From Bdellovibrio sp. ZAP7 (GTDB lineage Bacteria > Bdellovibrionota > FAC87 > UBA2466), in assembly GCA_945878405.1 (NCBI GenBank), contig CAMCTJ010000002.1, positions 3,099 to 67,098 of the forward strand: a stretch of DNA of 64,000 bases, given 5' to 3'. How positions within the stretch are numbered: position 1 is the first letter of the stretch; each line of letters opens with the position of its first letter. Positions 3,968 to 50,623 of the stretch are shown piece after piece. The notes below the pieces were generated by a model. That model was not told where the DNA came from, searched no databases, and saw only the letters and a list, made by a program, of their open reading frames with translations. The position numbers and the translations under genes are program-made.

Positions 3968-5108
3968 TACTAGCTACGTAGGAAAATGTTCCCGAAGGTT
4001 CCACTTTTAAAACCACCGCCGGCTTGATCGCGTTTCGGTCCGAGTTAATAGAAATCACTCCTGTAACCCCTTGAAAATTTCGCGTAGACGCAATGGCTTC
4101 TCGGATGTTTTTAGGACTCAGATCAGAAGAACGTTGAATCGCATCCAGCGCAATCGAGGCAGCATCATAGCCTAGAGCGGAAAGTCCATTGGGCCGGTGG
4201 CCGTATTGTTCTTCAAAGCGAGAGACAAAGCCCTGTACTGCTGCGTTTTTATCATCTGCTGAAAAATGATGACTAAAATAAGCCGGCAAGAGTGGGCTCT
4301 GGTCCTGTGGGTTTAAATGGAGTCCGTCCCAGCCATCTCCTCCTAAGAGAACAGCTCGAATTCCAATTTCTTTTGCCAGAGGAATAATTTTCTCTACTTC
4401 ACGGTAATAACCAGGAATAAAAATAATATCTGCCTTTGTAGATTTAATTTTGAGGAGTTGGGCACGATAGTTCCCAGCTCGTGAAGAATAATTGAGGTCA
4501 ATGAGGATTTGGCCGCCCATTTTTTTAAAATCATCTGAGAAAAAATTGGCTAGAGCGTGGCTGTATTCACTTTCCTGATCTCTAAGAATGGCTGCTTTTT
4601 TTAAATTAAGATGGTTGATTGCAAATTTTGCCATCACTGAACCCTGGAAGGGTTCTATAAAACAGCTTCTAAAAATATAATTCCCCAATTGTGTGATTTT
4701 AGGATGAGTGCTCGCAGGGCTAATCATCGGTACTTGATAAGATTGAGCAACGGGAGCTGCTGCTAAAGAAAGAGAGCTGGCTACCTCTCCCAAAATGACG
4801 TGCACGTGATCGTGATTGATGAGCTTTGTGACTGCCGAAATCGCTTTTTCAGCTTTTCCCTCGGTATCGTAAGAGATGATCTTGATGTGTTTTTTCCGGA
4901 TTCCGCCTTTACGATTCGCTTCCTCTACGGCCATCCAGATTCCTTTATGAGTGTCTGTTCCGAAAACGCTTTCAGCACCCGTCATGGCGCCGTACTCCCC
5001 CAATCGAATTTCGTTCTCTATAATGGGCAAGGTTTTGGAGGAGGAATGCTCGAAACAGCCCGACAGTAAAAAAGCCAATAGGAAATAAAGGGATAAAAGA
5101 ACTTTCAT
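3957..5108 (-). CDS. LivK/Peripla_BP_6-type amino-acid-binding lipoprotein (ABC substrate-binding protein)
   Basis: Lipobox LLSGC. IRLGEYGAMTGAESVFG...GGIRKKHIKIISYDTEGKAEKA...VILGEVASS is typical of Leu/Ile/Val-binding proteins. No permease or ATPase genes lie adjacent. Confidence 0.8.
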   Translation of the reverse strand: MKVLLSLYFLLAFLLSGCFEHSSSKTLPIIENEIRLGEYGAMTGAESVFGTDTHKGIWMAVEEANRKGGIRKKHIKIISYDTEGKAEKAISAVTKLINHDHVHVILGEVASSLSLAAAPVAQSYQVPMISPASTHPKITQLGNYIFRSCFIEPFQGSVMAKFAINHLNLKKAAILRDQESEYSHALANFFSDDFKKMGGQILIDLNYSSRAGNYRAQLLKIKSTKADIIFIPGYYREVEKIIPLAKEIGIRAVLLGGDGWDGLHLNPQDQSPLLPAYFSHHFSADDKNAAVQGFVSRFEEQYGHRPNGLSALGYDAASIALDAIQRSSDLSPKNIREAIASTRNFQGVTGVISINSDRNAIKPAVVLKVEPSGTFSYVASINP

Positions 5109-10021: not shown

Positions 10022-12502
10022 TTGATTATAAGATCCCAGTTATTGACTCGGCGCATTAAAAAGGGTAAAGTGCCCGCCGTGTTCCGGTTGAAATCTATTC
10101 CAATTTTAGGGGGACTGCTTTTGATCAGCAGCCTTTTGGGGTGCGGGAAACCGCTACAAAGACCCGTTCTTTCAGGGCCACCTTCGGCTCCAGTCGACCA
10201 ACTCATTTTAGGAAGAGAACTCAGTGCAAAGGACCTACGAGAACTTTTTAAAATTCTAAACCAAAAAGGTGAGTTTAATTCCCTTGCTCAGTGGATCGGG
10301 ACACTCTCTGATGCCGAATTATCCGCTTGGGGCCAGTTCTTAAACGAATGGGTGTATCAAGACGCTCTTTCTTCAAAGGGTTTGATTCAATTAGTGAAGG
10401 CCCGTGTTCAAGGACAAGGGTTTTCGCTTTGGAAGAAAAATCTTCAGAAACTGGGTCCGGCTTTACCCCAAATGTTCGAGGATGAGGAGCTTTGGTCTCT
10501 TCTTCCCAGAGTCGCCGGAACGTTGGATCCCCATTTTGTAAACGGTGTTTTGAAGCCTCTAGGGGCTGCCGCCGATAAAACCTTATTAGTGCCCGAGAAG
10601 CCGGAAGTGAACACAGGGAAAATCTGGGAGGAATTCTTTCAGCTTCTAGGAAATGAGCCAACCCGATTAAAGCTCCAAGACCTGATTCAATCTGTCGGAG
10701 ATCTCCAGTGGGTAGCTCCATTGGCGGAAGCCAGCCGTGAAAATTTAAACGCCTCAGGAGAAACTTGGTTTAGTCAGTTAGCAAAAGATTTTTCCGAGAA
10801 ACGAAGTTTCGTGAATCAGGCTTTGCGACTCGCAGAACTTCTCAATCGGCCGGCCGAACGGGCAGTGACCGTACTTCAGGAGGGGCTGCGCTCTAATCCC
10901 GACATCATTCACGCTTTGACGATGAGGTGGGATCCGATTTTTGTAAAATCGCTTTCAGAACTTGTCAGACAGGTACTCTTAAAGCCCGAAGATGGTAGCC
11001 GCTTGGACCGGGAATTTTGGCTAGCACTTCCTAGGGGAGACGTAGGTGCCCCTCCCACTCAAGAATTTATTCGACTTTACTCGGTTCTGTATTCCGGGAT
11101 TCAAAAGATTTCAGATCCCCGAAGGCTTGAGCCCCAAGTAGACAGTGGTTCTTATCGTTTGCCGCTGCAATTAAATGCGCTTTTTTTAACTCGTCTTCTT
11201 GAAGAAGCCGTTCGTCAGTTAGCACCCAAAATAAAAGAAATGAATCCAGAATCCTTTGAAGAGACTCTCTGGAAAAGCCCAGTTCTCATAAAAGAGTTTC
11301 GCTTAAACCTCATCAAAGACGAATCGCAAAATGAAGTCTCCGAATCCGTTCAACGAGATCTTCGAAGCTTGGGACTTCTGACAACGCTTTCTCGTTTGGA
11401 AAGTCTGGTTCGAGAACAGGATAGTGGAAAAAATAATTACTCAGTTACTTTTTCTTCCGAAACTCTCTCCCTCACCGAAGGGTTCTCTGAAGCAGTAGCT
11501 TCAGCACATGCGGTAAGACCCTTCGCGGACATTACTCCTTTTCTCGTAACTCTCGTGCAAAGCCTGATCGGAACCCATTCAGAAAGTGGTTTGGGCCTGG
11601 AGTTTTTAAAAAGCTCACCTAACCTACTCGCTCAAGGACAAGGTTTTCTGGCCCAGATTGATAGCAAGCAGTGGCAGCAGCTGAGAAAGCTTCTGTTTGA
11701 AGATCTGAAAATTGGTGCGCTTGAGATGGAAGATCGTGCGTTGTTGGTCAGTCTTTTTCAATCTGATCTCGAAGTGGCCGAGTGGGTGAATGAAATCTTA
11801 ATGAACGTTCAGAGCATTTATGCCTTAGATGGACTTTTCAGCTTTTATCACTCCTTTATTAGAAAACTCGGGGCACCTGAACTTTCCAATTTAGGAACCA
11901 CCTTAAGCATCTTATCTGAACTATCTCTTTTTAAAGAATCCGAAGAGGGGGTTCCAGTAAACCCAGGATTTCAATCTCTTCTTCTCAATGGGAATAGACT
12001 TTCTAAAGGAGTGAGAGGCTTCGCAGGCCTTTCAGCGGTTCAGGCAAGGCTTCTTCAGGGGAAATTAAACGAAGTACTTGGGGAGGATCTTGAGGGTCAA
12101 AAAGGTTCCGATTTGATTTTTGGAGTTCTTGCGAGGCTAACTGAGAGAGTAAGCCCGGAGACTGTTTCTGGATTTACCCAAAGACTTTTCGAAACCGAAT
12201 GGAGAATCACAGATTCAGAAAGTCAGTGGATCAGCGATTTTTCAAAGAAAAAAGGATTTTCTGAGCTCCACGAGCTTCTTAAAAGCCGAAAAAATCAGGT
12301 TTCCGTCTTGGATTTAATGAATGAAGTAAGAGTTTTATCTGAAAAGAAAGTCGTCGACGAGGGAATGCGTCTTTTGGCCAAAATTCAAAATGAACGAATG
12401 AAAGAAATCGCTTTAGTCATTTTGGAAATGGATCGCTCAGGTGAATTGTTTTCGCTTCTCGATTCTGTACCACTTATTTTTAAAAAAGGAGAAACCCCAT
12501 GA
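10022..12502 (+). CDS. large hypothetical lipoprotein (about 800 aa, apparently helical)
   Basis: Long uninterrupted ORF with the signal/lipobox LLLISSLLGCG. The TTG start at 10022 is uncertain; an in-frame GTG just before FRLKSIPILGG is also possible. No motif recognised. Confidence 0.6.
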   Translation: MIIRSQLLTRRIKKGKVPAVFRLKSIPILGGLLLISSLLGCGKPLQRPVLSGPPSAPVDQLILGRELSAKDLRELFKILNQKGEFNSLAQWIGTLSDAELSAWGQFLNEWVYQDALSSKGLIQLVKARVQGQGFSLWKKNLQKLGPALPQMFEDEELWSLLPRVAGTLDPHFVNGVLKPLGAAADKTLLVPEKPEVNTGKIWEEFFQLLGNEPTRLKLQDLIQSVGDLQWVAPLAEASRENLNASGETWFSQLAKDFSEKRSFVNQALRLAELLNRPAERAVTVLQEGLRSNPDIIHALTMRWDPIFVKSLSELVRQVLLKPEDGSRLDREFWLALPRGDVGAPPTQEFIRLYSVLYSGIQKISDPRRLEPQVDSGSYRLPLQLNALFLTRLLEEAVRQLAPKIKEMNPESFEETLWKSPVLIKEFRLNLIKDESQNEVSESVQRDLRSLGLLTTLSRLESLVREQDSGKNNYSVTFSSETLSLTEGFSEAVASAHAVRPFADITPFLVTLVQSLIGTHSESGLGLEFLKSSPNLLAQGQGFLAQIDSKQWQQLRKLLFEDLKIGALEMEDRALLVSLFQSDLEVAEWVNEILMNVQSIYALDGLFSFYHSFIRKLGAPELSNLGTTLSILSELSLFKESEEGVPVNPGFQSLLLNGNRLSKGVRGFAGLSAVQARLLQGKLNEVLGEDLEGQKGSDLIFGVLARLTERVSPETVSGFTQRLFETEWRITDSESQWISDFSKKKGFSELHELLKSRKNQVSVLDLMNEVRVLSEKKVVDEGMRLLAKIQNERMKEIALVILEMDRSGELFSLLDSVPLIFKKGETP

Positions 12503-38760: not shown

Positions 38761-39306
38761 ATGAGAAAGCTATTTAGCTCATTAGTAGTACTAGTGCTTG
38801 TTCCCGGCCTTTCCTTTGCTGGAACTGGCAAAGGCCAAATGAACAATTCAAGTTCACGAGAAATGAATGCTCTCAGCAATCAAGCAAACCCAAGCGGAAC
38901 TGATGGTTGCGGTTTGGGATGGCAAGTAACTCAGAAAAAAACAATGCTGGGAACCACTATCCGTGGCACCACGAACGCAGTTGTTCCCCCTACCTTTGGA
39001 ATGACATCCGGAACCATGGGGTGCGATAAACATGAGATCGCGAAAAATGACATGGATGCTGCCAAATTTGCTTTTAACAATCAAGAGCCCCTTTCGATTG
39101 AAATGGCTCAAGGTGAAGGCGAATACTTAGCAGGTTTTGCAAAAACTTTAGGTTGTGAAGATTCCGCACAAGGAACCTTTGCAAAAATGACCCAGGAAAA
39201 TTACGAATCCATCGTCAAGGAAGACCAATCAGCATTGAGTCTTCTTAAAAACGTGAAAGCTCAGATCAGACAGCACCCCGTGCTTTCTGAAAGCTGCCGA
39301 GCTTAA
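38761..39306 (+). CDS. DUF3015-like secreted protein
   Basis: Signal peptide. GCGLGW...TTNAVV..TFGMTSGTMGC is the pattern I associate with DUF3015. Confidence 0.55.
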   Translation: MRKLFSSLVVLVLVPGLSFAGTGKGQMNNSSSREMNALSNQANPSGTDGCGLGWQVTQKKTMLGTTIRGTTNAVVPPTFGMTSGTMGCDKHEIAKNDMDAAKFAFNNQEPLSIEMAQGEGEYLAGFAKTLGCEDSAQGTFAKMTQENYESIVKEDQSALSLLKNVKAQIRQHPVLSESCRA

Positions 39307-39326
39307 TTAGTATCTGCTATCGAGGG

Positions 39327-39363
39327 GTGGGAAAAAGACCGTTCTTTTTCCCACTCTTTTTTT
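39327..39363 (+). terminator. rho-independent terminator
   Basis: Perfect 12-bp stem GTGGGAAAAAGA / TCTTTTTCCCAC with loop CCGT, followed by TCTTTTTTT, about 20 nt after the stop at 39306. Confidence 0.85.
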
Positions 39364-39448
39364 GCCCAGATTTTGAAAAAATCTCCTCATTTGGCTCAAA
39401 TTAGCCCCGTACTCTTTCGTTAGTATCAGGGTTCACGGGGAGAAAAAA

Positions 39449-39745
39449 ATGAAGAAAATATTCTGGGTAATTACCTTGTTATCTGTAGGGGTTTTATTTT
39501 CCAAACAGGCATCCGCGGACAGTAAATGCACCGATTATCAACAATCCATGTGTATTCAAATGGTCGCACCAGTTTGGTGTGTTTCTTTGTCAGTGGGAGG
39601 AGAGACTTTAAAAAAGCCTCTTTATGCTAAGGCCTCGAATTCCTGCATTGCGATTAATCAGCTTCGTAAAAAAGCCTGCGATAAAGGTCTTGAGTGGAAA
39701 GATCTTGCCGATGAAGAAGTTCACTGCGTGATGGTGAAACACTAA
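39449..39745 (+). CDS. small secreted cysteine-rich protein (6 Cys in the mature part)
   Basis: Signal peptide MKKIFWVITLLSVGVLFSKQASA. GGAGA precedes the ATG. No confident family assignment. Confidence 0.55.
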   Translation: MKKIFWVITLLSVGVLFSKQASADSKCTDYQQSMCIQMVAPVWCVSLSVGGETLKKPLYAKASNSCIAINQLRKKACDKGLEWKDLADEEVHCVMVKH

Positions 39746-39761
39746 ATATCAGTCGAATCAC

Positions 39762-39799
39762 CCGCATCGAGAGTTCCTTTTCAAGGAGCTCTCGTGCGG
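39762..39799 (+). terminator. long imperfect hairpin downstream of the small Cys-rich gene (possible terminator)
   Basis: CCGCA(T)CGAGAGTTCCTT ... AAGGAGCTCTCGTGCGG forms a stem of about 17 bp with one bulge and one G-U pair. The following T tract (AATCTTT) is weak. Confidence 0.4.
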
Positions 39800-39913
39800 A
39801 ATCTTTAAGAGGGAACCTAAGTCTCTGATTTCTGCGTGATGCGACTTCTTTAGTTCGTCATCTGTTCGTTCGTGTATTCTGAGAGACTATCGCCCAACCC
39901 TTCGAATTTCCTG

Positions 39914-39994
39914 ACCCAAGCCCATGGGGGAAAAATTGAAGTAAAGAGCAAAGAAGGCGAAGGCTCCGAATTCATCGTTTATCTGCCGCTCTAG
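39914..39994 (+). pseudogene. relic of the C-terminal end of a histidine-kinase HATPase_c domain
   Basis: My own translation gives ...TQAHGGKIEVKSKEGEGSEFIVYLPL*, the canonical last strand of HATPase_c. The frame is closed by TAG at 39851, and no H-box or N/G1/G2 boxes lie upstream. Confidence 0.55.
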
Positions 39995-40056
39995 AACTCC
40001 AAAGTTAAGTCGTACCTTTTGGAACGCCAAAGCGTCATGGTCGGTCTTATACGGTT

Positions 40057-40953
40057 TTAAAGATGAATCCTTTTCACAAAGCTTACGAGACCGGGCAAAG
40101 CCTGCTGAATCTTTCGTTTAAGAAGCCCCAATTTAATCAACTTGGGGGCTCTATAACTCTCGATAATTTTGGGGTGAAGACAGTTCATGAATTCTATGTT
40201 CTGCAAAGGAAAAACCTGTTTTTTTAGCAGGGCTTGATACGATTCGCTGCCTTTGCGAACATAGAGGAAGACATTTTGCTGATAATAGTAGGGCACTTCA
40301 GGATCTCCCCAGATTTGCGATCGAAAAATATCGAAGGGAACGTATCCATCTGCCACAAACATTTTGGCCCAATAGGAATGAGGCTGCTCATTAATATGGC
40401 CAACCCCACCCTGACCCGTGTATGCCGCACTAAACAAAACGACGTCTGCCAACTTGATGAGCGATTGAACCAGGATCCGCGCTGAAGCTGGTTTAAGATG
40501 CTCCCCTAGTTCAGTAGATATTGCCAGATCAAAACGCCGATTAAAAAAAAGGGGAAAGTTTAAATCTGTTTGGTGAAATCTAATGGAGCTATCCAACATC
40601 TGTTTTTGTGACAGCCACTGTCCATCAAACCCAACGAGATCACGAGCCCCAGCCTCTCTAAAGGCCTTCAGCCAAGCTCCTCTTCCGCAGCCTAGATCTA
40701 CAACACTCTTGGGCTTAAAAATATGCCTAAGTAAGCGGACGTATTTTGTTGCACCAGCATAGGATCTTGCCGTCTGACGGTCGAAATAATGCTGATCATA
40801 AACCGATGCTATTCCCTCAGGGAGTGTAATCCTAGCGTCCACGTATCCAACAAAAAATAAAGTCCCAAAAGCTAGGAAGGGGGGTAGCAACAGCCAAAAG
40901 CTAAGCTTGCAAATGTTTGACCGAGGCATCACCTTGAGAATTAGACTTCGCAT
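40057..40953 (-). CDS. membrane-anchored class I SAM-dependent methyltransferase
   Basis: N-terminal TM helix (LSFWLLLPPFLAFGTLFFVGYV). SAM motif I VVDLGCGRGAWL. Post-I acidic residue LVGFD. The ATG at 40953 is preferred; the ORF track begins at a TTG at 40968. Confidence 0.75.
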   Translation of the reverse strand: MRSLILKVMPRSNICKLSFWLLLPPFLAFGTLFFVGYVDARITLPEGIASVYDQHYFDRQTARSYAGATKYVRLLRHIFKPKSVVDLGCGRGAWLKAFREAGARDLVGFDGQWLSQKQMLDSSIRFHQTDLNFPLFFNRRFDLAISTELGEHLKPASARILVQSLIKLADVVLFSAAYTGQGGVGHINEQPHSYWAKMFVADGYVPFDIFRSQIWGDPEVPYYYQQNVFLYVRKGSESYQALLKKQVFPLQNIEFMNCLHPKIIESYRAPKLIKLGLLKRKIQQALPGLVSFVKRIHL

Positions 40954-41073
40954 AGGCTTGCCCGGCAAGCCTCAGGGCGTTGGCGCGCTCCGCCAAATGT
41001 CGGAGAATGAAGGGCGAGTGTTAAATTCTTGTACCCTGTTTACCTTTTGGTTCTGATTGGAGAGCGGGGATTT

Positions 41074-41102
41074 TTCTTGCTGCAGATATCTTGTAGTATA
41101 AT
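41074..41102 (+). promoter_or_regulatory. candidate sigma-70 promoter for the ABC exporter gene
   Basis: TTCTTG, a 17-nt spacer, then TATAAT. The -10 element ends about 30 nt upstream of the ATG at 41133. Confidence 0.4.
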
Positions 41103-41132
41103 TCCCAGACAGATTGTCTTAATTGTTAACCG

Positions 41133-42920
41133 ATGAGAAAAAACCCATCATCCAATATTTCAGTTGTTCTTAGTATTGTTCGAAAATTTAAAAAAGAATG
41201 TTTCTTCTTGATTTTATTTGTCACCGTTGATGTTGCTCTTGAAACCCTCAGTGTGGGTTCGGTGATTCCCATGTTGACAATCACGTTAAACAATTCAGTG
41301 GTCAGAGACAACCCAAAGAAATGGCTTTCATTCATCAGTTCCCATTTAAGTGAGTCACAACAAATAATTGTGATAAGTCTAGGGATACTCATTCTTTTTC
41401 TCATCCGAACTGCAAACAATTTAGCAACCAAATTCTATTCGTCATGGTTCACTAACCATCTCCGTGAATATTGGAGCACACAAATGTTTCAGAACCTTTC
41501 AGTTAATAATTCGGCACTCTTAAAAAACACTAAAAAAGGAGTCTTGAATAATTCTATTAATCAAGAGCCACTTTTTGCAGCTAAAGGAGTGAGCCTCCTA
41601 ATAGACGTCATCGTTTCTCTGCTTTTAATGATTTCGTTGACAGTCTTACTCTTATTAATCAATTGGAAGGCTACTCTTACCTGTGTGGGACTTTTACTTT
41701 TGTTTGTTGGTTTTGTCTGGAACACTATGATGCGTTTTTCGTGCGAGTTTGGAAAAAACAGAGTCAAATTAAATGAGGAAATCAATCAGTTGTTGTGCGA
41801 TTCTTCAGATGGCTGGCGCCAAATAAAAGTGTTGTCACTCGAGAGGGAGTTGTTTTCTGAGTTTCGGTTCAAGCTACGAAAACTGGTAACTGGGCTTGTA
41901 AAGTTCGAACTGATTAACAGTATTCCGAAGGAAGTAGGCGAGCTTTCGATTGTTTTCTCACTGGTTACCGGATTGTTTTTTGCCAAGTTTTATCGACATG
42001 TCGAGCTGTCACTTTTTTTACCTCAGATTGTATTTTTTTCTGTTTCGTTCATGAAACTGTTTTCGGCAGCGACCTCAGTTCTAAAAAAGGGGATGGAGAT
42101 GGCTACCTGTCTGCCGTCTATCCTTAAAGTTCATTCTCTTTCAGGGGCTTCAATTTCCGGTGAGGTTTTGTCCTCGAATCCCCCAACTATCTTTCAGAGA
42201 AACCTCGCGGTCAAAAACCTAAGTTTTCATGTTGCTAAAAATCATTTGGTTCTAAATGATTTATCATTTCAAATACAGAAAGGTGAATTCATTGCGCTCA
42301 TTGGGAAGGTGGGGGTTGGCAAATCAACTTTGTGCGACCTGTTAGCAGGTTTATATGAACCTTCTTCAGGAGCAATATTTCTGGACGGGGTTTCGCTTAA
42401 ACAGCTGGATTTAGTTCAATGGAAAAAAAAGATCTCCTATGTAACACAAGAAGTCTTTCTCTTTAATGACACCATCATAAACAATATTCTTTTGGGCAAT
42501 AAGTCCGCTCGCAGAGAAGACGCAATTAAGGCGGCTGAAATTGCACAGGCCAAAGAATTGGTTGAGGCCTTACCCCAGAGTTTCGATACTGTTCTGGGAC
42601 CTGGAGGAATCACTCTTTCGGGGGGGCAGAAACAAAAAATAGCTTTAGCTCAAGCTCTCGTTAGAGAGCCAGACTTTCTAATACTAGATGAGGCCACAAA
42701 TGCTTTAGATTATGAGTCCGAGGAAAAACTTTTCACTTCGTTGCGTAACAACAACAGAAAACAGACCATACTTTTGGTAACACACAGAACTCACGTTTTA
42801 AAGCATGTTGACAGGACATTACAGCTGCAAACGAGCTCAATGAGAGAATATCATTCCTCCATGGAGTATGACTGTTTTCAAAGGCCAGAACTTCAATGTT
42901 TACCCACCCCTAGAAAATGA
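41133..42920 (+). CDS. fused TMD-NBD ABC exporter (MsbA/type I exporter-like)
   Basis: About 6 N-terminal TM helices. Walker A GKVGVGKST, signature LSGGQKQK, Walker B FLILDEAT, H-loop VTHR. Confidence 0.9.
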   Translation: MRKNPSSNISVVLSIVRKFKKECFFLILFVTVDVALETLSVGSVIPMLTITLNNSVVRDNPKKWLSFISSHLSESQQIIVISLGILILFLIRTANNLATKFYSSWFTNHLREYWSTQMFQNLSVNNSALLKNTKKGVLNNSINQEPLFAAKGVSLLIDVIVSLLLMISLTVLLLLINWKATLTCVGLLLLFVGFVWNTMMRFSCEFGKNRVKLNEEINQLLCDSSDGWRQIKVLSLERELFSEFRFKLRKLVTGLVKFELINSIPKEVGELSIVFSLVTGLFFAKFYRHVELSLFLPQIVFFSVSFMKLFSAATSVLKKGMEMATCLPSILKVHSLSGASISGEVLSSNPPTIFQRNLAVKNLSFHVAKNHLVLNDLSFQIQKGEFIALIGKVGVGKSTLCDLLAGLYEPSSGAIFLDGVSLKQLDLVQWKKKISYVTQEVFLFNDTIINNILLGNKSARREDAIKAAEIAQAKELVEALPQSFDTVLGPGGITLSGGQKQKIALAQALVREPDFLILDEATNALDYESEEKLFTSLRNNNRKQTILLVTHRTHVLKHVDRTLQLQTSSMREYHSSMEYDCFQRPELQCLPTPRK

Positions 42921-44678
42921 GGGAAGAAAAACACATTCATTGTAATTTTCATTTGGCTCATCGGTAATATACTGAACTCGCTTACCTGATTTTATTGCCA
43001 TCCAGGCCAACGGGTAATCATACTGATTTCGTCGTGATTTTATATATACAATTTTACATTCTCCTATCAGCCTCTTTAAGTTTTCAAAATCAAACTTTAT
43101 AAGTGACCTTCTTAGATAGTAGGCTTTAAATCTCTTCGGCTCATCCGTAGGAATCGTAAGATCGCTCTGAAACAGACGTTGTCCCGTGACACTACCTTGG
43201 ATGTAAAAGGTCATCGCTAGACTTGTAAATACAACGGCACATCCGATTCGCTTTACCAAGGTTCTTTGAAATAAAATGAGACTTTGACTTATGGTGGCTC
43301 CCCATACAATCGAGGTTGCTACAAACCAGGGTGTTTGCAATCGAGAGGTCCATGTTTGGTTTTTGACAATTGCGTGAAATAAAAGCCAGGAGCTCAGGAG
43401 TGAAAGCCCGATAATGTACAGGCGTTTGTCGCGCAATCTAACTATTAAAGGTCCTAAAAAAATAATCGTGACAAAAAGCTGCAAGGGATTTCCTACATAG
43501 TCTTCAGTTGATCTTATAGAAAAGACTAAATCCAATCTTGTCAGAATATTCAAATCTACTTCAAAGATTTTCCCAACAAAAGAGACAACGGGTAAACTGA
43601 CCGCTGCTGGGAGATGGTCGACAATGTGTCGAATTGAGTTAAACAATTGTTCCATGGGACTACTAAGCCGTAGGGTCACTAGGTTTTCTGCATTAATATG
43701 ACCGTATTTAAGCCACTTGTGTGTGATTTCAGAAATCGTAGCCAAAACGCCAAAGAAAACACTCCCTAGAGAAGAAATAAACGAGCGAAAATCCCGAACT
43801 ATCGTTAAAAAGTAAGCTGGGGCTATGGCTAATAGGAAAGGCGTGCAAATCAGAATTGACGTGGGCTTAATTAAATAGCCAGTACCCATGGCGATGGGAA
43901 CGGCACAAACTAGATAACGAGTGCAGTTTGCCCTGTAAGGAAAAATATTTCTTAAAAAGTGGTCCACCACAGCTACCACAATCACTACCGTAGGAACTGA
44001 GGCTACAAGATCATTTTGAGTTGTTTGAGCTTGTAAGACCACCATAGGGGCCGCCAAGAAAACCGAAATGATCGCAAGGCTGTTTAATCTAGAAACTCCC
44101 CAATTTATGAACCATCCCCACAACCCAAACCCGATGATTAAAAATGCATTCAGCTGAATGGAGTTTGCCCATCGATCGGACTCCCAAAAGAGTTGCTCGA
44201 TTAAAATGAGGTACTCAGCTCCGGGAGTCATTTGATTTTGTCGTTGATCATTCGTGACGTATGGAAAGACGGACCGATTTTGAAACCAATTTGCTACCCT
44301 CGACATGTGGTAGGCCATACTGTCCCAATTACTGGGCGGGAAACACAGAGCATTAAAAGCTACGACCGACATGACTATGCCTAATAAGGCTATGATTTTT
44401 TTTTCAATAGATGAGCAAGCGGGCGAGTTTTGCCAGGGATTAGTAAACGCAATGGAGTGACCATTGCGGATGTAAATTGCACCCCACAAAATCAGGCATA
44501 ACACCAGGACTCGAATAATCAAAGGAGTCACTAGATCAAATGAACTGAAAAAGGCCAGCAAAACAGAAAAGAAACTCGTAACAACACAAAAAGCTAATGG
44601 CAAACTTTTCAGGAAGGTTATCCTCAGCCATTTATCGATAGGCAAGCTTGCAACAAAAATGAGAGTTAATATAATCAA
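42900..44678 (-). CDS. large polytopic membrane protein, GT-C-like (ArnT/PMT_2-like) putative glycosyltransferase
   Basis: 592 aa with at least 11 hydrophobic helices. An acidic/aromatic loop after the first helices (PPSNWDSMAYHMSRVANW) is reminiscent of GT-C enzymes. The apparent start is TTG. Confidence 0.5.
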   Translation of the reverse strand: MIILTLIFVASLPIDKWLRITFLKSLPLAFCVVTSFFSVLLAFFSSFDLVTPLIIRVLVLCLILWGAIYIRNGHSIAFTNPWQNSPACSSIEKKIIALLGIVMSVVAFNALCFPPSNWDSMAYHMSRVANWFQNRSVFPYVTNDQRQNQMTPGAEYLILIEQLFWESDRWANSIQLNAFLIIGFGLWGWFINWGVSRLNSLAIISVFLAAPMVVLQAQTTQNDLVASVPTVVIVVAVVDHFLRNIFPYRANCTRYLVCAVPIAMGTGYLIKPTSILICTPFLLAIAPAYFLTIVRDFRSFISSLGSVFFGVLATISEITHKWLKYGHINAENLVTLRLSSPMEQLFNSIRHIVDHLPAAVSLPVVSFVGKIFEVDLNILTRLDLVFSIRSTEDYVGNPLQLFVTIIFLGPLIVRLRDKRLYIIGLSLLSSWLLFHAIVKNQTWTSRLQTPWFVATSIVWGATISQSLILFQRTLVKRIGCAVVFTSLAMTFYIQGSVTGQRLFQSDLTIPTDEPKRFKAYYLRRSLIKFDFENLKRLIGECKIVYIKSRRNQYDYPLAWMAIKSGKRVQYITDEPNENYNECVFLPSFSRGG

Positions 44679-44723
44679 GCTGTCACTTTCATCAATGGAG
44701 CTAGATTACCGGTAAAAAAGAGA

Positions 44724-46007
44724 ATGCTAAATAGTAAACCTGAAGAGAACCCATTTTCTGTGCCCGTGCCTTTACGAGTAGGCGTTTTCTACGTTTGTCG
44801 TCTGGAGCCCATGAAGACTCTGGCCCAGATGATGTATCGTTTCGCAGCTCGCGCTATAGGAAACTCACTGACTAGGTTCTCCAGCACTAGAGCGGTTTAT
44901 TTGATGGGGGGCTCAGCTCATCGGATTATCCCCGCATTGTCCGACCTCGACTTCCTGCTATTTACTGAAATTAATCCCGATGTAATTTTAAAGCTTCGGC
45001 GTGTGTTTTTATTACATAAAAAACGGTATTGGATTCCAGGAGAAATCATTCCCTTAGATGAAAAAGCTCTCAAATTTTTGGAGACATCGGGCTGCTCTCT
45101 TTCAATTCATATTTTTGGCAGAACTAAAAAGATTGCAGGCGATACGATTAATATTACCCCTACAATTCCTCCAGATCCCGCAAGTCTTTTTATGCTTTTG
45201 ATACGTTTTTTTGTGAAAGCGACAAGTTCACTTAGTGGTGGTCTGAGAAATGCTTCTTTGTATAATATTTTTGACTGCCAAAGACATTTATCAAAGATAA
45301 TCGCATTAAACTCAGGAACAAAAGTAACAAGCTATCTTTCCGAAAAAGACCCCACATCATTAGTTCAGCTGTTTTGTGAAGCCTATTTGTTGTTAGACAA
45401 ACGCGCAAAAAATCTTATTAGGGAAATATTTCCCAACGGCGTTCCGTTTGAGATTGCCTCGTATTTGGGTGACCCCACAAACATGCCAGAGCAGCGAATA
45501 TTCAGAGTTGAATCCACAAAAGATGTCATCTCCGATTTGTTTCAGCAAACCTTGAACACGCAAGCCCGCACAACTTCTTTCCCACTTTGCCTTTCAGAAA
45601 GCACGGCAATCTGTCGATTAATTGGCCTAACACTAGAATCGTGGTCACAGGTTTTGAGTCGCCTTTCCTCTTTACCCGCAGAGATTACAATTCCTATTCT
45701 AACTGTTGTTGCTCGGGAACGAGCCATGAGACGTTATTTTCAACTCCCGGGTGATATTATGCTGAACTCTCAAGAAGCTATTAGAAGTAAACTGAACCAG
45801 TTTTGCAGATTGGGATGCTATCTCGCTACCCAGGGATATTTTTTAGAAAGAGAGTCGCTTGCCGAATGTGCGGAACCGATTTTGCCCAACACCACAAGAA
45901 CTCTGAGAAGGACCCATCAAGGCTCGTCACAGCTATCAATCCAAGACATGGTGGAAAATACTATTCTGGTTCGAAATGAACTAGAGAAATTTATTTTTAA
46001 TCTTTAA
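44724..46007 (+). CDS. Pol-beta-superfamily nucleotidyltransferase-fold protein with a long C-terminal helical region
   Basis: YLMGGSAHRIIPALSDLDFLLF fits the minimal NTase signature hG[GS]-x(9-13)-Dh[DE]h. The remaining 330 aa or so are unassigned. Confidence 0.55.
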   Translation: MLNSKPEENPFSVPVPLRVGVFYVCRLEPMKTLAQMMYRFAARAIGNSLTRFSSTRAVYLMGGSAHRIIPALSDLDFLLFTEINPDVILKLRRVFLLHKKRYWIPGEIIPLDEKALKFLETSGCSLSIHIFGRTKKIAGDTINITPTIPPDPASLFMLLIRFFVKATSSLSGGLRNASLYNIFDCQRHLSKIIALNSGTKVTSYLSEKDPTSLVQLFCEAYLLLDKRAKNLIREIFPNGVPFEIASYLGDPTNMPEQRIFRVESTKDVISDLFQQTLNTQARTTSFPLCLSESTAICRLIGLTLESWSQVLSRLSSLPAEITIPILTVVARERAMRRYFQLPGDIMLNSQEAIRSKLNQFCRLGCYLATQGYFLERESLAECAEPILPNTTRTLRRTHQGSSQLSIQDMVENTILVRNELEKFIFNL

Positions 46008-46012
46008 AAGCG

Positions 46013-46717
46013 CTACATTTTAAGTTCCGATTTTATTTTTCGAATTCTCTCAACGATACTAAGCCCAGTCGATCTTAAACACTGCCTTATAAACGGCCCA
46101 GAATAATTAAACCGCTGCCATTGATCACCATCGTAAACCCTTAGCCAAGTGTGTACATCTTCTCCACTCTCTAAAAGTTTTTTTATGATGTTCTGCAGAA
46201 TTCGCTGATCCCCCGGAGCTCCTAACTCGCCTGCTGACCAGTCTGTCCAAAGAGCTAGTTTCTCTTTATTCCAAATTTGTTCAAAATCATCTTTCCAAGT
46301 CGTTAATACGGTCTTTGCTTTGGGGTGCTTTAGATTTATAAAAAAAGCCCCATTATTAAAGTCATATATTCTTCCGTCGAGTTTTCCCCTACAAAAAATA
46401 AAAGCTTTATCCATGTTCTCAAAAATAATCTCTTCAAGGCGAGGTCTGAAATTGTAAATATAACAATCCACATCTAGATAGAGTGCCCAATCGTGAGTTT
46501 CACTCAGAACCTCATCTAGCAGAAGATAGATACGATTGAAGGCTGCGTGCCGAGGCGTAAACCCTCGTTTTATTCCAATGAATGAATGGTAGTCATATTT
46601 GTGTTGCAAACAATACTTTCGAATCCCAGGGCCGGTCACTTCAAGGAGGGGGAGATACAATACGGGATCACAACTCTGAATCACTGCAATTGAAAGTGGA
46701 GAATTTACTGGGTTCAT
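46013..46717 (-). CDS. GT-A-like nucleotide-diphospho-sugar transferase (GT34/DUF273-like)
   Basis: IRKYCLQHKYDYHSF ... THDWALYLDVDCYIYN contains a DxD motif in the context typical of Mnn10/Gma12-like and related transferases. There is no signal peptide. Confidence 0.5.
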   Translation of the reverse strand: MNPVNSPLSIAVIQSCDPVLYLPLLEVTGPGIRKYCLQHKYDYHSFIGIKRGFTPRHAAFNRIYLLLDEVLSETHDWALYLDVDCYIYNFRPRLEEIIFENMDKAFIFCRGKLDGRIYDFNNGAFFINLKHPKAKTVLTTWKDDFEQIWNKEKLALWTDWSAGELGAPGDQRILQNIIKKLLESGEDVHTWLRVYDGDQWQRFNYSGPFIRQCLRSTGLSIVERIRKIKSELKM

Positions 46718-46775
46718 TTTTACTGGTGCTACTTAAGCAGTTGCACAACAGATCTTACTTAATTAATGTAGGAAA

Positions 46776-47498
46776 ATGCTAACCGCGATCGTCTTAAATT
46801 GGAAGCGGCCCGAGAATCTGCCACGCATTATCGCTGCTCTGCAGCGATGCGAGATCGTAAATGAAATTATAGTTTGGAATAACAACCCAGGGATTAATCT
46901 TAAACTGAATAGGGGTGTCTGTGTTATCAACTCGAACCGAGATTTGGGACTATTCACAAGATTTGCAGCCGCTTTGTTAGCAAAAAACGATGGAATTTTT
47001 TTTCAAGATGATGATGTTGTTCTCGACGAGAACAGGATAATGCAGCTTCACAAGCAATGGGAAATTGCTCCTGAAGTTTGTCACGCAGCCTTCGGCCGAA
47101 GATGTGCTGTCGGTCCTTATAACAAAATAAATGCATGGGGAGATGTGGATGTTGTTCTCACTAAGGCAGTGGTTGTTCATAAAAAAGTGTGTCTGCAAGC
47201 GGCTCTCAACACCCAGTATTTTAAAGATCTCCCTGGAAGACCCCTTGGAAACGGAGAGGACATTCTGTTGTCTTATACTGCAATGTCCATGAGCGGAAAA
47301 TATAACCGCGCGCACAATTTATTTTTAAAAGAAGAAAGACAAGACCCAAACATTGCTATAAGTCAACGAGAGCCAACTCATATGGAACATCGGGATCGAG
47401 TTCTAAAGCGGTGTCAAAAATTATTTAGTTCTCCCAGGTTGCCTTACTCAGATGCTTTTAATTTAGACCAAATCCCAGTCAGCCAACCGAGTCCGTAA
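46776..47498 (+). CDS. GT-A glycosyltransferase, GT2/GT64-like
   Basis: LTAIVLNWKRPENLPRIIAALQRCEIVNEIIVWNNNP ... IFFQDDDVVL. The (I/V)VWNN plus DDD arrangement resembles the exostosin-type GT64 domain. Confidence 0.6.
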   Translation: MLTAIVLNWKRPENLPRIIAALQRCEIVNEIIVWNNNPGINLKLNRGVCVINSNRDLGLFTRFAAALLAKNDGIFFQDDDVVLDENRIMQLHKQWEIAPEVCHAAFGRRCAVGPYNKINAWGDVDVVLTKAVVVHKKVCLQAALNTQYFKDLPGRPLGNGEDILLSYTAMSMSGKYNRAHNLFLKEERQDPNIAISQREPTHMEHRDRVLKRCQKLFSSPRLPYSDAFNLDQIPVSQPSP

Positions 47499-48430
47499 GC
47501 AAAATGTACCATCGCTGTTAAAGGAACTGCGGAGATTATTCCGACAGCACCTAATTGCCGAATGGGTCTTGAGCAAAATGCCGCTATTAGGGACATAAAT
47601 AGGTAACTCACCACCAAAAAGAAAATCGCTTGATACTTACCCCCAATAAACAGGGCCACTAAACAAATCAGCGCTACTGGAGGCGCCAGATAGAGGGGAT
47701 GACAACTTTGCCAAGACCTCCAGGTTTGCTGAAACCGACCGAAACCGTAGGAAAAAGTCTGTTTGGCAAAGCTATGAATATTTCTTCTTCGGTGATGAAA
47801 AACATAAAGTTCGGAACATAAAATCGCCTTAAGTTTTAATCGGCCTATAAAATACAAGAAAAAAGTTTCCTGATTGCTTGATAGCTCATCCAAAAAATAT
47901 AGCTCGCTAGGGACCATGTCTCGGCGGCATGCGAGATTACAAAAAATGATATTATGTTGAGTGGCTATCTGGAGCTTTCTCTTAGGCAAGCAATATCTTT
48001 GTCTAACCATCGGAGCCGCAAAACAGCTAGTCATTACAGCCCCAAAACACTTCTCGATTAGAGCGCTGTTCGGAGGGGTCAGATTAGCACCACCGGCTAC
48101 AATAACATCGGGCTGCTCATCAAATAAGGCGAGTGTGGAATGAAAAAGATGTTGAGGAACAATGACGTCATCATCTAGAAAGTGAATTATTTTCCCGTGG
48201 CACAAATCAAAGGCCGTATTTCTTGCTTTAGACAGAGAAACGCGAGCAATTTGCACCCATCTAAACTGAGGATGCATAAAGCCTTTCAAAAAATGAACAA
48301 TGCTAGGATGATCGCCATTGATAACGATGAGAACCTCCGAGTTTGGAGGCAACGCATGAGATACGCTTTCGCAACACGCCTTTAAAAGTTCCAACCTTCC
48401 ACAGCTTACAATATGAACTGAAAGATTCAT
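47444..48430 (-). CDS. family 2 glycosyltransferase with a C-terminal multi-TM tail
   Basis: VHIVSCGRLELLKACCESV...EVLIVINGD and HFLDDDVIV (DxD). The last 110 aa or so are hydrophobic. ATGA overlap with the upstream kinase-like gene. Confidence 0.8.
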   Translation of the reverse strand: MNLSVHIVSCGRLELLKACCESVSHALPPNSEVLIVINGDHPSIVHFLKGFMHPQFRWVQIARVSLSKARNTAFDLCHGKIIHFLDDDVIVPQHLFHSTLALFDEQPDVIVAGGANLTPPNSALIEKCFGAVMTSCFAAPMVRQRYCLPKRKLQIATQHNIIFCNLACRRDMVPSELYFLDELSSNQETFFLYFIGRLKLKAILCSELYVFHHRRRNIHSFAKQTFSYGFGRFQQTWRSWQSCHPLYLAPPVALICLVALFIGGKYQAIFFLVVSYLFMSLIAAFCSRPIRQLGAVGIISAVPLTAMVHFAYGLGWLTGIWSKLKASE

Positions 48431-49443
48431 TTCATTTCACTCACACAATTTTTAATCTGAAAAAATGTTTCAAACACGTTAGCACTTTCGGATGGATTAT
48501 GGGAAAAAGTGAAGTGGGCCACTTTAACTTCTGAAAAAACTCGAAATGCAGTTCCCGTCCGGCTGACTAATATTTTCAACTTAGCGAGGATATCATGCAA
48601 AGAGGCCCGGATAAAAAACTCCCAGATTTGGGGAGTTTCGTAGCCGACAACTAGCCATTTAAACAGGGGCCATAGAATATAGATTCGGTTAATCTGTACA
48701 ATTTGGGCCTTCTTTTTCCGCTTTTTGCTGCTCAGAATTAACCATTTAATCTCGCCATCGGCAGCAATAGAGTCGCTAAAAAAATCAGCGCCAACGACGA
48801 ATTTACTGCCAAAATGAAATCGTTTAAACTGTCGACAGTATTTACTGTTTATATTAGGCCGTTCTTTTAAGGCAATACGCTGAGGAAAAGCCAGCATTTT
48901 CCCCTCTTTTGTGATCACTGGGGTGTCATCAGAGATAATTTTGGTGCTTTGATTCTTAAGCAATTCCATCGCGAGTGTACTTTTTCCTCCTCCAGAGGGT
49001 GCCACCAAAACACCTCCCACATTGTGAGTAATGAAGCCAAACCCATGAATCCGATGGCAACCTCGCTTATCCATAGACTCACCTAGGTATGAGAGCGTTG
49101 CTAAATAAACAACTTCGTATGACACATCCGGATCTGAGCTATAAATATGGCAATATCTGGCAACAAAATCATACTCCACTTGAGCAGTTCCAAACATGCA
49201 AACTCGAATACAATTTCCAAAGGACCAAGCGCGCTTTGAACGAAATTGGTTACTCGCAACCAAAGGCGTCCAAGGACAAGGTTCCTTGGAAAAATGTCGA
49301 ATGACAAACTGATCCTTTTCCAAAAAGGCTGTTTCAGGATTTAAAAAATAAGCAAAATCATGTTGAAAATTTGAGGACACTTCATGCATGTCTGTTTCTA
49401 AAAGGAGTCGAGTTCCATGAACCCAGAGTTCATGCGTAAACAT
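48427..49443 (-). CDS. HPr kinase/phosphorylase C-terminal-domain-like P-loop protein
   Basis: IHGFGFITHNVGGVLVAPSGGGKSTLAMELLKNQSTKIISDDTPVI matches the HprK-C pattern HG..v...G.GvLi.G.SG.GKS..a..L...G..L.sDD. GTGAGGG lies 5 nt upstream of the ATG. Confidence 0.7.
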   Translation of the reverse strand: MFTHELWVHGTRLLLETDMHEVSSNFQHDFAYFLNPETAFLEKDQFVIRHFSKEPCPWTPLVASNQFRSKRAWSFGNCIRVCMFGTAQVEYDFVARYCHIYSSDPDVSYEVVYLATLSYLGESMDKRGCHRIHGFGFITHNVGGVLVAPSGGGKSTLAMELLKNQSTKIISDDTPVITKEGKMLAFPQRIALKERPNINSKYCRQFKRFHFGSKFVVGADFFSDSIAADGEIKWLILSSKKRKKKAQIVQINRIYILWPLFKWLVVGYETPQIWEFFIRASLHDILAKLKILVSRTGTAFRVFSEVKVAHFTFSHNPSESANVFETFFQIKNCVSEMK

Positions 49444-49768
49444 TTTACCCTCACCATTTCTGGAAAATTACGAAGCTATTGCCGAAAGAAGGCAAAAATT
49501 AAAGCTCAATTTAATGTCTCGTAAATAAGATAGCGGTTCAAGGGAAATAATCCCGCAGTAGCCCTCACGAGGGCCCTTTAACGCATCGTTTATTAGCTGT
49601 AACTTTTATTACTATGATCGCAGGATAAATTCCCATTCATAAATTTCATTGCCGCGACATAATACCTGGGAAAAGTGCCGACCTTGGCTTTGGAAATTCA
49701 GGCGGTACCTTTTGGTAAACAATATGCAGTAAGAAATCATGTGGCTTGCCGAGCAAAAAGAGACACTC

Positions 49769-50623
49769 ATGATTCTAAAACTACTTTTTGTCTTGAGTTT
49801 GGGATTTTTTGGTAGAGATGCACAGGCCGGGTTGGGACCCGTTCGCAGGATACTTCCTGATTTTGTTAATGGAGTTACTTTAGACTCTACTGCCGCTCTT
49901 GCAGATTCTCTAGATTCCATTGCAAGTTTAAAGGCCCCAATTGTGACTCGAATTGTCTTTGATGAATGGGTACCCGCTAGTTTCTATGTGGATCCCGTGA
50001 GTAGTCTCTATGAGAAAAGCTTCGTTATGGGAGAAATACTCGATTCCTCCGCGGTAAAGCAGTACACGGTTAAGCAATATAAGGCCCGAACAGTGGAATA
50101 CATCAAAGCTCTCGGGGCCAACGTCGATCTCTGGGAGGTGGGAAATGAGATTAACGGGGAATGGCTTGGGAAAACTTCAGTCGTCGTATCAAAAATGACC
50201 AGTGCTTTTGACGCAGTAAAAAATGCAGGATTAAAAACGGCACTGACCCTCTATTACAACCCCGGCTGCTGGGCGAAACCCGACCATGAAATGTTTTTGT
50301 GGGCCCAGCAAAACATTCCGGATCGGATGAAGCAGGGGTTAGATTACGTTTGGGTCAGTTATTACGAAGATGATTGCAATGGAACCCAACCGGATTGGTT
50401 TAAAGTGATGAGTCGAGTGGCAACCCTATTTCCCAATTCTAAAGTTGGGATTGGAGAGTGTGGAACTACCGACCCACTCAAGAAAGAGGCTTTTGTAAAA
50501 AAGTATTATACTCTTCGTCCGGCAGTGCCTCGTTTTGTAGGTGGTTTCTTCTGGTGGTACTTTAAAACTGATATGGTCCCTAAAACTCAGCCACTGTGGG
50601 CCGTTTTGAGTGATACCATCTAA
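49769..50623 (+). CDS. secreted clan GH-A (TIM-barrel) glycoside hydrolase-like protein
   Basis: Signal peptide MILKLLFVLSLGFFGRDAQA. WEVGNEINGEW is an NE acid/base motif. A later VGIGECG is a candidate nucleophile Glu. The ORF-track start at 49739 is less likely. Confidence 0.6.
   Translation: MILKLLFVLSLGFFGRDAQAGLGPVRRILPDFVNGVTLDSTAALADSLDSIASLKAPIVTRIVFDEWVPASFYVDPVSSLYEKSFVMGEILDSSAVKQYTVKQYKARTVEYIKALGANVDLWEVGNEINGEWLGKTSVVVSKMTSAFDAVKNAGLKTALTLYYNPGCWAKPDHEMFLWAQQNIPDRMKQGLDYVWVSYYEDDCNGTQPDWFKVMSRVATLFPNSKVGIGECGTTDPLKKEAFVKKYYTLRPAVPRFVGGFFWWYFKTDMVPKTQPLWAVLSDTI

Follow-up and report, generated by a model that had tools for sequence, protein, structure and literature searches.

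What is the product of an eight-gene island that combines a divergent P-loop kinase with a nucleotidyltransferase (NTase), three glycosyltransferases, a methyltransferase, an orphan protein and an ATP-binding cassette (ABC) exporter? The question is raised by a 64-kb stretch of DNA from a Bdellovibrio-like lineage, referred to here as the window, on whose numbering all coordinates of the island and its flanks are given. An earlier reading of this DNA (the original prediction) had proposed an accessory island that builds and exports a phosphorylated, methylated or glycosylated product by an undescribed route. The accessory status of the island is now proven, and a strong argument can be made that it forms one functional module. 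Its best reading, held with slightly less than even confidence, is that of a divergent module that would phosphorylate, glycosylate and export its substrate, and that lacks the recognition element (RRE) of systems for ribosomally made peptides with post-translational modifications (RiPPs).

The island is 9,693 bp long, contains exactly eight genes and carries at both edges a perfect 11-bp direct repeat, GTACCTTTTGG (positions 40012–40022 and 49705–49715, both on the plus strand), which occurs exactly twice in the window versus 0.02 copies expected by chance. Contigs for comparison were retrieved by exact-protein look-up with the peptide deformylase of the window; the island is present in four of them (L026–L029) and absent from four others (L024, L025, L030 and L031). 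The island-less contigs are 97.7–98.8% identical to the window flanks on both sides. Their alignment to the window stops at approximately 39805–39880 on the left and resumes at 49694–49705 on the right, and in them the gene for a 98-aa secreted protein joins the glycoside hydrolase (GH)-like gene directly. The existence of ~98%-identical contigs without the block, together with a bounding repeat of only two copies, demonstrates that this is an accessory island with a strain-level presence/absence polymorphism, and the original prediction was correct on this point. The island appears to be dispensable and may have been gained or lost between the two 11-bp direct repeats.

The empty sites hold the 11-bp motif too, as a single copy in L024 and L030 and as a tandem pair in L025 and L031, which indicates that the motif itself is unstable. 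It belongs to a small palindrome, GTACC-TTTT-GGTAC, with tandem copies at 7046–7071 in L025 and 510–535 in L031. The G+C content is 0.41–0.42 in the island versus 0.44–0.45 in the flanks. Inspection of open reading frames (ORFs) and Pfam domains found no integrase, transposase or tRNA gene in or beside the island; with no recombinase nearby either, and the 11-bp direct repeat as the sole terminal feature, a reading as a mobile element was rejected.

The kinase, the nucleotidyltransferase and their relatives

The protein that anchors the island, encoded at 48427–49443 on the minus strand, is assigned by sequence profiles and a structural model to the PEPCK/HprK superfamily of P-loop kinases. 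Its Pfam match to Hpr_kinase_C (PF07475) is weak (E = 0.003; 17.5 bits versus a cut-off of 33.3), it scores 16.3 bits against TIGR00679 (cut-off 240), and its match to NCBIfam HprK_rel_B (E = 5e-5) is likewise under the cut-off; yet profile and structure searches confirm the HprK-C-like fold that had been proposed for it. When a profile of 34 family members was searched against the Protein Data Bank (PDB), the top four matches were HprK/P, with the HG…GxGKS…DD motifs aligned. The AlphaFold2 model (pLDDT 93) retrieved PEPCK structures for all of its top 50 Foldseek matches (E = 7e-9, TM-score 0.56), covering both domains. Residues H133, G151, K154, S155 and D173 are invariant in the family, and the conservation of D172 exceeds 90%. 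The corresponding His-Lys-Asp-Asp set is essential in lasso-peptide kinases, as determined by mutagenesis (PMC9266682). Conservation of this set and the match to the PEPCK/HprK fold make catalytic competence of the kinase probable. The family comprises 43 homologue clusters, and the only hosts found for it are Bdellovibrionota-type metagenome-assembled genomes. Pattern scans with a narrower kinase alignment retrieved only three metagenome contigs and six GTDB species genomes, the latter with labels that read Bdellovibrionota, Bdellovibrionales, Pseudobdellovibrionaceae or, for two older records, Deltaproteobacteria. Four homologues (P0006, P0023, P0028 and P0034) carry the Pfam domain PF27840.

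The second rare component is an orphan protein of 427 aa (44724–46007, plus strand) without any match in Pfam or NCBIfam, whose family has 29 representatives among 1.84 billion proteins. G62, D74 and D76 are invariant within a GGx9SDLDF motif, and the AlphaFold2 model (pLDDT 89) has AAD(9), AadA, LinB and MNT as its top Foldseek matches, with probabilities of 0.9–1.0 and E-values of only 4e-3 to 4e-2 (best 3.6e-3). Motif and model thus place the protein in the Pol-beta NTase superfamily, and the NTase-fold assignment of the original prediction holds. The modelled architecture, an NTase domain with a large helical C-terminal region, is that of enzymes which nucleotidylate hydroxyl groups. PDB sequence searches, performed with the single sequence and with a profile, returned only spurious coiled-coil matches and were discarded as a route to its identity. 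Some relatives are larger: an NTase-like domain is found inside a 977-aa ORF of L011 (2220–5153), with an extra region that has no Pfam match, and the 750-aa representative P0053 has an N-terminal extension too. A literature search on TIGR04352, TIGR04355 and NTP_transf_5 returned nothing.

Fourteen distinct kinase loci, including the window, were assembled from genomes and metagenome contigs. The NTase accompanies the kinase in eight of them. The most frequent partner is an MftF-like GT2 glycosyltransferase (11 of 14 loci), whose gene and that of the kinase are nearly always immediate neighbours on one strand; the two adjoin in ten loci and are ~8 kb apart in L009. A polytopic PMT_2-like GT-C protein, belonging to either of two subfamilies, is present in at least eight of the 14 loci, and an S-adenosylmethionine (SAM)-dependent methyltransferase, of either of two non-orthologous kinds, in five. 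Exporters are represented by a fused MsbA-like ABC protein in two loci (window and L004) and by an ABC-2/ATPase pair in three (L006, L008 and L009), while a GT64-like protein occurs together with a 234-aa orphan in three (window, L016 and L004). L016, whose proteins are 63–79% identical to those of the window, has the same gene order and the same alternating strands, and both are largely kept in L004 (41–64% identity). The co-occurrence of two very rare families, the gain or loss of the block as a unit and the gene order shared with L016 and L004 argue strongly, at the level of comparative genomics, that the island is one functional module. The corresponding part of the original prediction, i.e., a single module whose exported product is phosphorylated, glycosylated or methylated, is thereby supported.

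Other members of the kinase family are found in different surroundings. In L020 (7584–10993), a kinase homologue of 37–40% identity begins where a GH57/DUF3536 gene has its stop codon; the latter gene is the last of an alpha-glucan operon (GH77, a branching-enzyme-like protein and alpha-amylase), and neither GT2 nor NTase is found nearby. L007 (7948–13508) represents a third kind of context, in which the kinase–GT2 pair has an FkbH_N-domain protein, a HAD hydrolase and an EamA transporter on its flanks, while NTase and GT-C are both lacking. Several kinase loci have as immediate neighbours genes for small lipoproteins, which contain lipoboxes and linkers rich in Ser, Thr and Gly, and for large secreted repeat proteins that belong to a single family (L006 9275–9661; L008 6985–9759; L013 361–2658; L019 6843–9925; further sites at L004 4512–8057 and 16391–16804, and at L011 5315–5746). 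These proteins are possible candidate substrates. Among the small secreted proteins and lipoproteins beside the loci, no common family was found, save the one repeat-protein family of L006, L008, L013 and L019.

The other island genes and the flanks

All eight ORFs of the original prediction were found at the coordinates that it had given. From left to right, they are encoded on alternating strands, an arrangement on which the original prediction had been silent (methyltransferase minus, ABC exporter plus, GT-C minus, NTase plus, 234-aa protein minus, GT64 plus, GT2 minus, kinase minus), and such a conserved, strictly alternating pattern is not what biosynthetic clusters usually show. The kinase and GT2 genes form the sole co-directional pair; they overlap by 4 nt, and the kinase gene is predicted to be translationally coupled to the GT2 gene. 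Convergent 3' overlaps connect the ABC exporter and GT-C genes (21 nt, 42900–42920) and the GT64 and GT2 genes (55 nt, 47444–47498), and convergent overlaps recur at 11996–12045 in L004 and at 4080–4134 in L016. A scan of the island for promoters and terminators gave signals no higher than those of shuffled controls.

Three of the four glycosyltransferases that had been proposed, the GT2, GT64-like and GT-C proteins, are supported, while the fourth turned out to be an orphan. The GT2 (47444–48430, minus strand) matches Glycos_transf_2 (E = 1.2e-13), is membrane-anchored by C-terminal transmembrane helices (residues 246–308), as had been noted, and is closest to MftF in NCBIfam. All 11 members of the GT2 family match MftF (best E = 2.7e-29), EpsD and HpsN, and the window protein scores 30.5 bits against the MftF model (TIGR03965), far under the equivalog cut-off of 280. 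In PDB searches with the family profile, chondroitin synthase (E = 4.5e-11), TarS-like enzymes and PglI are favoured, and DPMS is matched only at E = 0.06. By sequence, the GT2 does not appear to be a polyprenyl-phosphate transferase of the ArnC/GtrB type; its C-terminal transmembrane helices resemble those of such enzymes.

The GT64-like glycosyltransferase of the GT-A fold (46776–47498, plus strand) is supported by its match to Glyco_transf_64 (E = 8.3e-10). Its orthologues in L016 and L004 share 79% and 64% identity, respectively, and the L004 copy also matches Glycos_transf_2. In all three loci that hold it, the soluble 234-aa orphan (46013–46717, minus strand) adjoins the GT64-like gene; it has five clusters in 5.8 billion proteins and a conserved, DxD-like YLDVDC motif. 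Its former label as a GT-A DxD transferase was dropped: the best Pfam match at E <= 10 was DUF273 (E = 0.085), the PDB search gave none, and comparison with the GT2 family by hhalign yielded a probability of 0.4%.

The polytopic 592-aa protein (42900–44678, minus strand) consists of ~13 transmembrane segments and a C-terminal soluble domain. The protein itself has no direct match in Pfam or the PDB, and a profile of its family had none among PDB sequences. PMT_2, PMT or GT87 domains are found on distant homologues; within the homologue alignment, four of 21 members match PMT_2 and one matches PMT. Via transitive homology only, the protein is assigned to the GT-C enzymes of the PMT_2/ArnT type, in agreement with its earlier description as GT-C-like. 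D119 is invariant in the family, within the motif PPxNWDSMxYH. A PMT_2-like GT-C of the second subfamily occupies the equivalent place in L004, L006, L008, L015, L019 and L021. Homologues in L022 and L023 stand alone among unrelated genes, so that the GT-C family also occurs independently of the island.

Both proteins at the left end of the island agree with their earlier descriptions. The SAM-dependent methyltransferase (40057–40968, minus strand) matches Methyltransf_23 (E = 4.7e-11) and Methyltransf_25 (E = 3e-6), and is anchored in the membrane by one N-terminal transmembrane helix (residues 19–37). The methyltransferases of L006, L008, L015 and L021 are non-orthologous to it. The exporter (41133–42920, plus strand) is a half-transporter of 595 aa of the MsbA/HepA/PglK type, in which permease and ATPase are fused (ABC_tran, E = 1e-33; ABC_membrane, E = 3e-9); it has six transmembrane segments and no peptidase domain. 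Its NCBIfam matches are HepA (E = 5e-75), MsbA (TIGR02203 MsbA_lipidA, E = 5.5e-74) and PglK (E = 1e-63), with all scores under the equivalog cut-offs, and its orthologue in L004 is 41% identical. Pfam and NCBIfam searches found no Wzx/Wzy, no Wzm/Wzt, no initiating phosphoglycosyl transferase and no sugar-nucleotide gene in the island, as the original prediction had stated.

Just left of the left repeat lies the relic of a histidine-kinase 3' end (39929–39997, plus strand; …GGKIEVKSKEGEGSEFIVYLPL*), preceded by in-frame stops. It is visible in the translation and was identified by motif only, and the empty sites hold a more decayed version. Further to the left, the window encodes the 98-aa Cys-rich secreted protein (39449–39745) and a DUF3015 protein (38761–39306), which are both also present in the island-less strains. 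In L016 (1392–3151), the DUF3015 gene borders directly on the island's kinase end, whereas in the window (38761–49443) it faces the methyltransferase end, with the 98-aa gene in between; the position or orientation of the island near the same landmark gene therefore differs between the two. On the right, the neighbour at 49739–50623 is a secreted protein of 294 aa, which lies outside the island because island-less strains keep its gene. Its description as a secreted neighbour stands, but the hydrolase family assigned to it is reflected only in a sub-threshold match to Glyco_hydro_53 (E = 1.2e-4).

What the island may make

The island can be read as a Bdellovibrionota variant of the tailoring set of kinase, NTase and ABC exporter that occurs with lasso peptides and with linear polyphosphorylated peptides (LPPs), joined to glycosylation enzymes of its own; the chance that this is correct is rated as nearly even. 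In this proposal, the kinase would act in the cytoplasm and transfer one or more phosphates onto a substrate hydroxyl, most likely that of a Ser in a peptide or small secreted protein. The NTase would then act on the phosphate, e.g., by a nucleotidylation that activates it for the formation of a phosphodiester with a sugar; in the case of pseudomycoidin, PsmN is required for the addition of a hexose to phospho-Ser. The MftF-like GT2 would add sugars, which the GT64-like enzyme could extend, perhaps together with the 234-aa orphan. The affinity of the GT2 to MftF and the precedent of IgtG, a transmembrane-anchored GT2 that glycosylates a lasso peptide (PMC11912497), would by analogy fit a peptide or small-molecule acceptor. 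The membrane-anchored methyltransferase is proposed to methylate the product and the MsbA-like half-transporter to export it, and the GT-C could add a further sugar in the periplasm, with a polyprenyl-phosphate sugar as its donor, the synthesis of which would be encoded at another place in the genome. The window version would have lost, or never had, the RRE and the leader peptidase of related loci, and without them its substrate recognition must be direct.

The peptide-type markers are found in those related Bdellovibrionota loci, where the kinase/GT2/GT-C block is separated from the NTase gene by two small genes (L006, L008 and L015). One encodes a protein of ~155 aa related to signal peptidase I (SpI), which matches TIGR02228 with E-values of 2e-12 to 2.5e-8; the top three PDB matches of its profile are SEC11A/C (E = 1.2e-4), with the Ser, His-Arg-Val and Lys-Gly-Asp motifs aligned. 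The other, also present in L021, encodes a PqqD-like, RRE-like protein of ~110 aa, whose profile has the lasso RRE TbiB1 as its top PDB match over the full length, with a DE-VV-L-L-TG-YF pattern and a weak E-value of 0.08. The genes are located at L006 14957–16626, L008 14925–16595, L015 3884–5557 and L021 14977–15366, and the RRE-like proteins have a conserved C-terminal tail, …LREGEKxLDEITFLCP. Relatives of the L006/L008/L015 type thus appear to carry an LPP-like marker set in a Gram-negative phylum, outside the Bacillota.

Several observations weigh against the proposed peptide-type module. The kinase stays under the cut-off of every curated model in Pfam and NCBIfam, and NTP_transf_5 (PF14907) is matched neither by the window NTase at E <= 10 nor by 27 members of its family at E <= 0.01. 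The resemblance of the RRE-like proteins to TbiB1 is weak, and the four loci that bear them also share flanking genes (for L015, only pairs within its 9-kb contig), so that they may represent one lineage and not independent evidence. In the window, hidden Markov models (HMMs) of the RRE-like and SpI-like proteins had no match among all ORFs of at least 25 aa across the 64 kb, and a regular-expression search of ORFs of up to 200 aa for the LPP leader pattern YxxPxVLxHQxIxFETxxS found none; the 64 kb likewise yielded no small ORF that is conserved. An all-against-all search of the RRE-bearing loci for a conserved small precursor ORF returned only the RRE-like gene itself and antisense shadows of larger genes.

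The remaining points against the peptide-type module speak at the same time for a serious rival, a glycan or lipid substrate, which is considered possible rather than probable. The island would then decorate a glycan or glycolipid, with no peptide involved, as a strain-variable surface modification similar to the Arn/Flm/Gtr systems. GT2 and GT64 would assemble a short sugar unit on a lipid, the kinase would phosphorylate a sugar hydroxyl, and the methyltransferase and/or the NTase would cap or activate the phosphate, yielding a WbdD-like methyl-phosphate or a phosphodiester. The PglK/MsbA-like ABC protein would flip the lipid-linked product, and the GT-C would transfer it to lipopolysaccharide (LPS), lipid A or some other acceptor in the envelope. 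The GT-C is a near-constant partner in the loci, and GT-C enzymes require lipid-linked (polyprenyl) donors and are typical of pathways for glycans, LPS and protein O-glycosylation; to our knowledge, they are not typical of known RiPPs. Against PglK and HepA, which export glycans or lipids, the exporter scores no worse than against any other model. The kinases of L006, L008 and L009 are surrounded by Wzm/Wzt-like (ABC-2) pairs, GT4 and GT2 genes, but ABC-2 pairs are also found in RiPP clusters and are therefore non-diagnostic.

PEPCK, the best structural match of the kinase, acts on a small molecule, and the coupling of the L020 kinase to the GH57 alpha-glucan operon hints at a sugar substrate, whereas the characterised HprK-family kinases all phosphorylate Ser residues of proteins or peptides. 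The lack of a precursor, an RRE and a peptidase in the window, as seen by HMM and pattern searches, is consistent with a glycan substrate, but related loci carry both the RRE-like gene and the leader-type peptidase. Strain-variable islands for surface glycans are common; this one has no initiating phosphoglycosyl transferase, no flippase of the GtrA/ArnEF type and no sugar-nucleotide gene, and its GT2 is not GtrB/ArnC/DPMS-like by sequence (DPMS, E = 0.06), with MftF as its best curated match. Should the substrate be a glycan or protein instead of a RiPP, the kinase family would gain a broader scope than is known for it at present.

A leader- and RRE-independent phosphoglycosylation is judged unlikely. 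Kinase and NTase would here activate a phosphate on a secreted protein, a lipoprotein or an envelope glycan, on which GT2, GT64 and GT-C would build a methylated, phosphodiester-linked glycan. Such a machine would be a bacterial surface modification of an undescribed type, strain-variable within a lineage of predatory bacteria, and the kinase–NTase pair known from RiPPs would then be a general phosphoglycosylation module and not peptide-specific.

It is improbable that kinase and NTase instead constitute a non-canonical sugar activation, in which a sugar phosphate is converted to an NDP-sugar as an unusual donor for the island glycosyltransferases. This would explain an island without conventional sugar-nucleotide genes or any other gene for donor synthesis, would follow the salvage logic of kinase plus nucleotidyltransferase known from AmgK/MurU, and would agree with the coupling of the kinase to the GT2 (11 of 14 loci). 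However, known sugar-1-phosphate nucleotidyltransferases differ in fold from Pol-beta NTases, the closest structures, AadA and LinB, nucleotidylate hydroxyls and not sugar phosphates, the NTase is missing from six of the 14 kinase loci, and the RRE and SpI genes of the relatives would be left unexplained. That there is no system at all, only an accidental mosaic of eight unrelated accessory genes, is very improbable, since the seven separate transcription units on alternating strands and the uninformative promoter and terminator scans that could suggest it are outweighed by the order and strand pattern kept in L016 (63–79%) and largely in L004 (41–64%), the co-occurrence of rare families and the movement of the block as a unit.

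Comparison with known systems

The preferred reading, a peptide-type module that phosphorylates, glycosylates and exports, can be set against the systems that resemble it in part. WbdD of E. coli O9a terminates chains in the ABC-transporter-dependent synthesis of O-polysaccharide. The island similarly combines a kinase and a methyltransferase with glycosyltransferases and an ABC exporter, and some of its relatives lie beside Wzm/Wzt-like pairs. In contrast to WbdD, its kinase has the PEPCK/HprK and not a eukaryotic-like fold, kinase and methyltransferase reside on two proteins, export is assigned to a fused MsbA type instead of Wzm/Wzt, there is no initiating transferase, and an NTase and a GT-C are added. 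WbdD-type capping, which the original prediction had offered as a partial precedent, thus shares parts of its logic with the island but none of its defining proteins.

MftF is the mycofactocin glycosyltransferase and acts on a RiPP-derived molecule, the sugars of which can be methylated. It is the best curated match of the kinase-coupled GT2 family; unlike the mycofactocin system, the island has no mycofactocin genes, and the GT2 score is far under the equivalog cut-off. The periplasmic glycosylation systems of the Arn/Flm/Gtr type consist of a polyprenyl-phosphate GT2, a flippase and a GT-C, e.g., FlmF/FlmK in Francisella (PMC2233673). Their membrane-anchored GT2 and PMT/ArnT-type GT-C have a parallel in most of the loci, where such genes lie next to each other, whereas the GT2 is MftF-like, a GtrA/ArnEF flippase is lacking, and the kinase and the NTase are without counterpart there.

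Closer similarities are found with the tailoring of the lasso peptides paeninodin and pseudomycoidin (PadeK/ThcoK/PsmK and PsmN). These systems share with the island the kinase–NTase pair and the catalytic His-Lys-Asp-Asp set, and pseudomycoidin provides the precedent of Ser phosphorylation followed by the NTase-dependent addition of a hexose to the phosphate. The pair stands in the island without a lasso cyclase, a B2 protease or an RRE, as stated in the original prediction: domain and HMM searches agree, and among the eight proteins of the island and the ORFs that flank it, none matched an asparagine-synthetase-like lasso cyclase or a transglutaminase-like B2 protease. A further difference is that the island has dedicated glycosyltransferases, of which the psm cluster has none. 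PsmN has shown no activity in vitro; the chemistry after phosphorylation is unsolved in the known systems, and the coupling of the kinase to the GT2 suggests which enzymes could be partners in the missing step.

The clusters for LPPs, RiPPs that have been reported as restricted to the Bacillota (Popov et al., Nat Commun 2026, PMC13381572), come closest. Their core consists of an HprK-like kinase, an NTP transferase, an MsbA-like exporter, an RRE and an SpI; TIGR02228, the archaeal-type signal peptidase I, marks them, and they are embedded in glycosyltransferase-rich capsule loci (PMC13381572). LppK polyphosphorylates one Ser, while LppN is inactive in the published system (PMC13381572). The original prediction was thus right to infer a module, but the route is not wholly undescribed, as its lasso-peptide precedent has a closer published form in the LPP clusters (PMC13381572). 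The island resembles them in its HprK-fold kinase with an NTase-fold partner and an MsbA-like fused ABC exporter, in the lack of a lasso cyclase, in its location among glycosyltransferases and in its patchy accessory distribution; the TIGR02228 peptidase and the PqqD-like RRE are shared by the related Bdellovibrionota loci and not by the window. Differences are that the window island lacks RRE, SpI and a precursor with a YxxP leader, that its NTase lies outside NTP_transf_5, that its kinase is too divergent for the curated models, that it adds a GT-C, a kinase-coupled MftF-like GT2, a GT64 and a methyltransferase, and that its host belongs to a Gram-negative Bdellovibrionota lineage. Since four of six LPP features (SpI, RRE, NTP_transf_5 and precursor) are missing from the window, the MsbA-like exporter being present, the island was not filed as an LPP cluster.

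The pair of HprK-like kinase and NTase has so far been tied to lasso peptides and LPPs of the Bacillota. The island extends this module to a Gram-negative phylum, where it is hard-wired to glycosyltransferases of its own, and the addition of a GT-C is a further point of interest of the island family. Natural strains with and without the island, at ~98% identity, offer a ready comparison for finding its product. Among the systems compared here, the LPP cluster is the nearest known relative, followed by paeninodin/pseudomycoidin tailoring; the island probably works like an LPP cluster, and its locus family probably includes LPP-like members.

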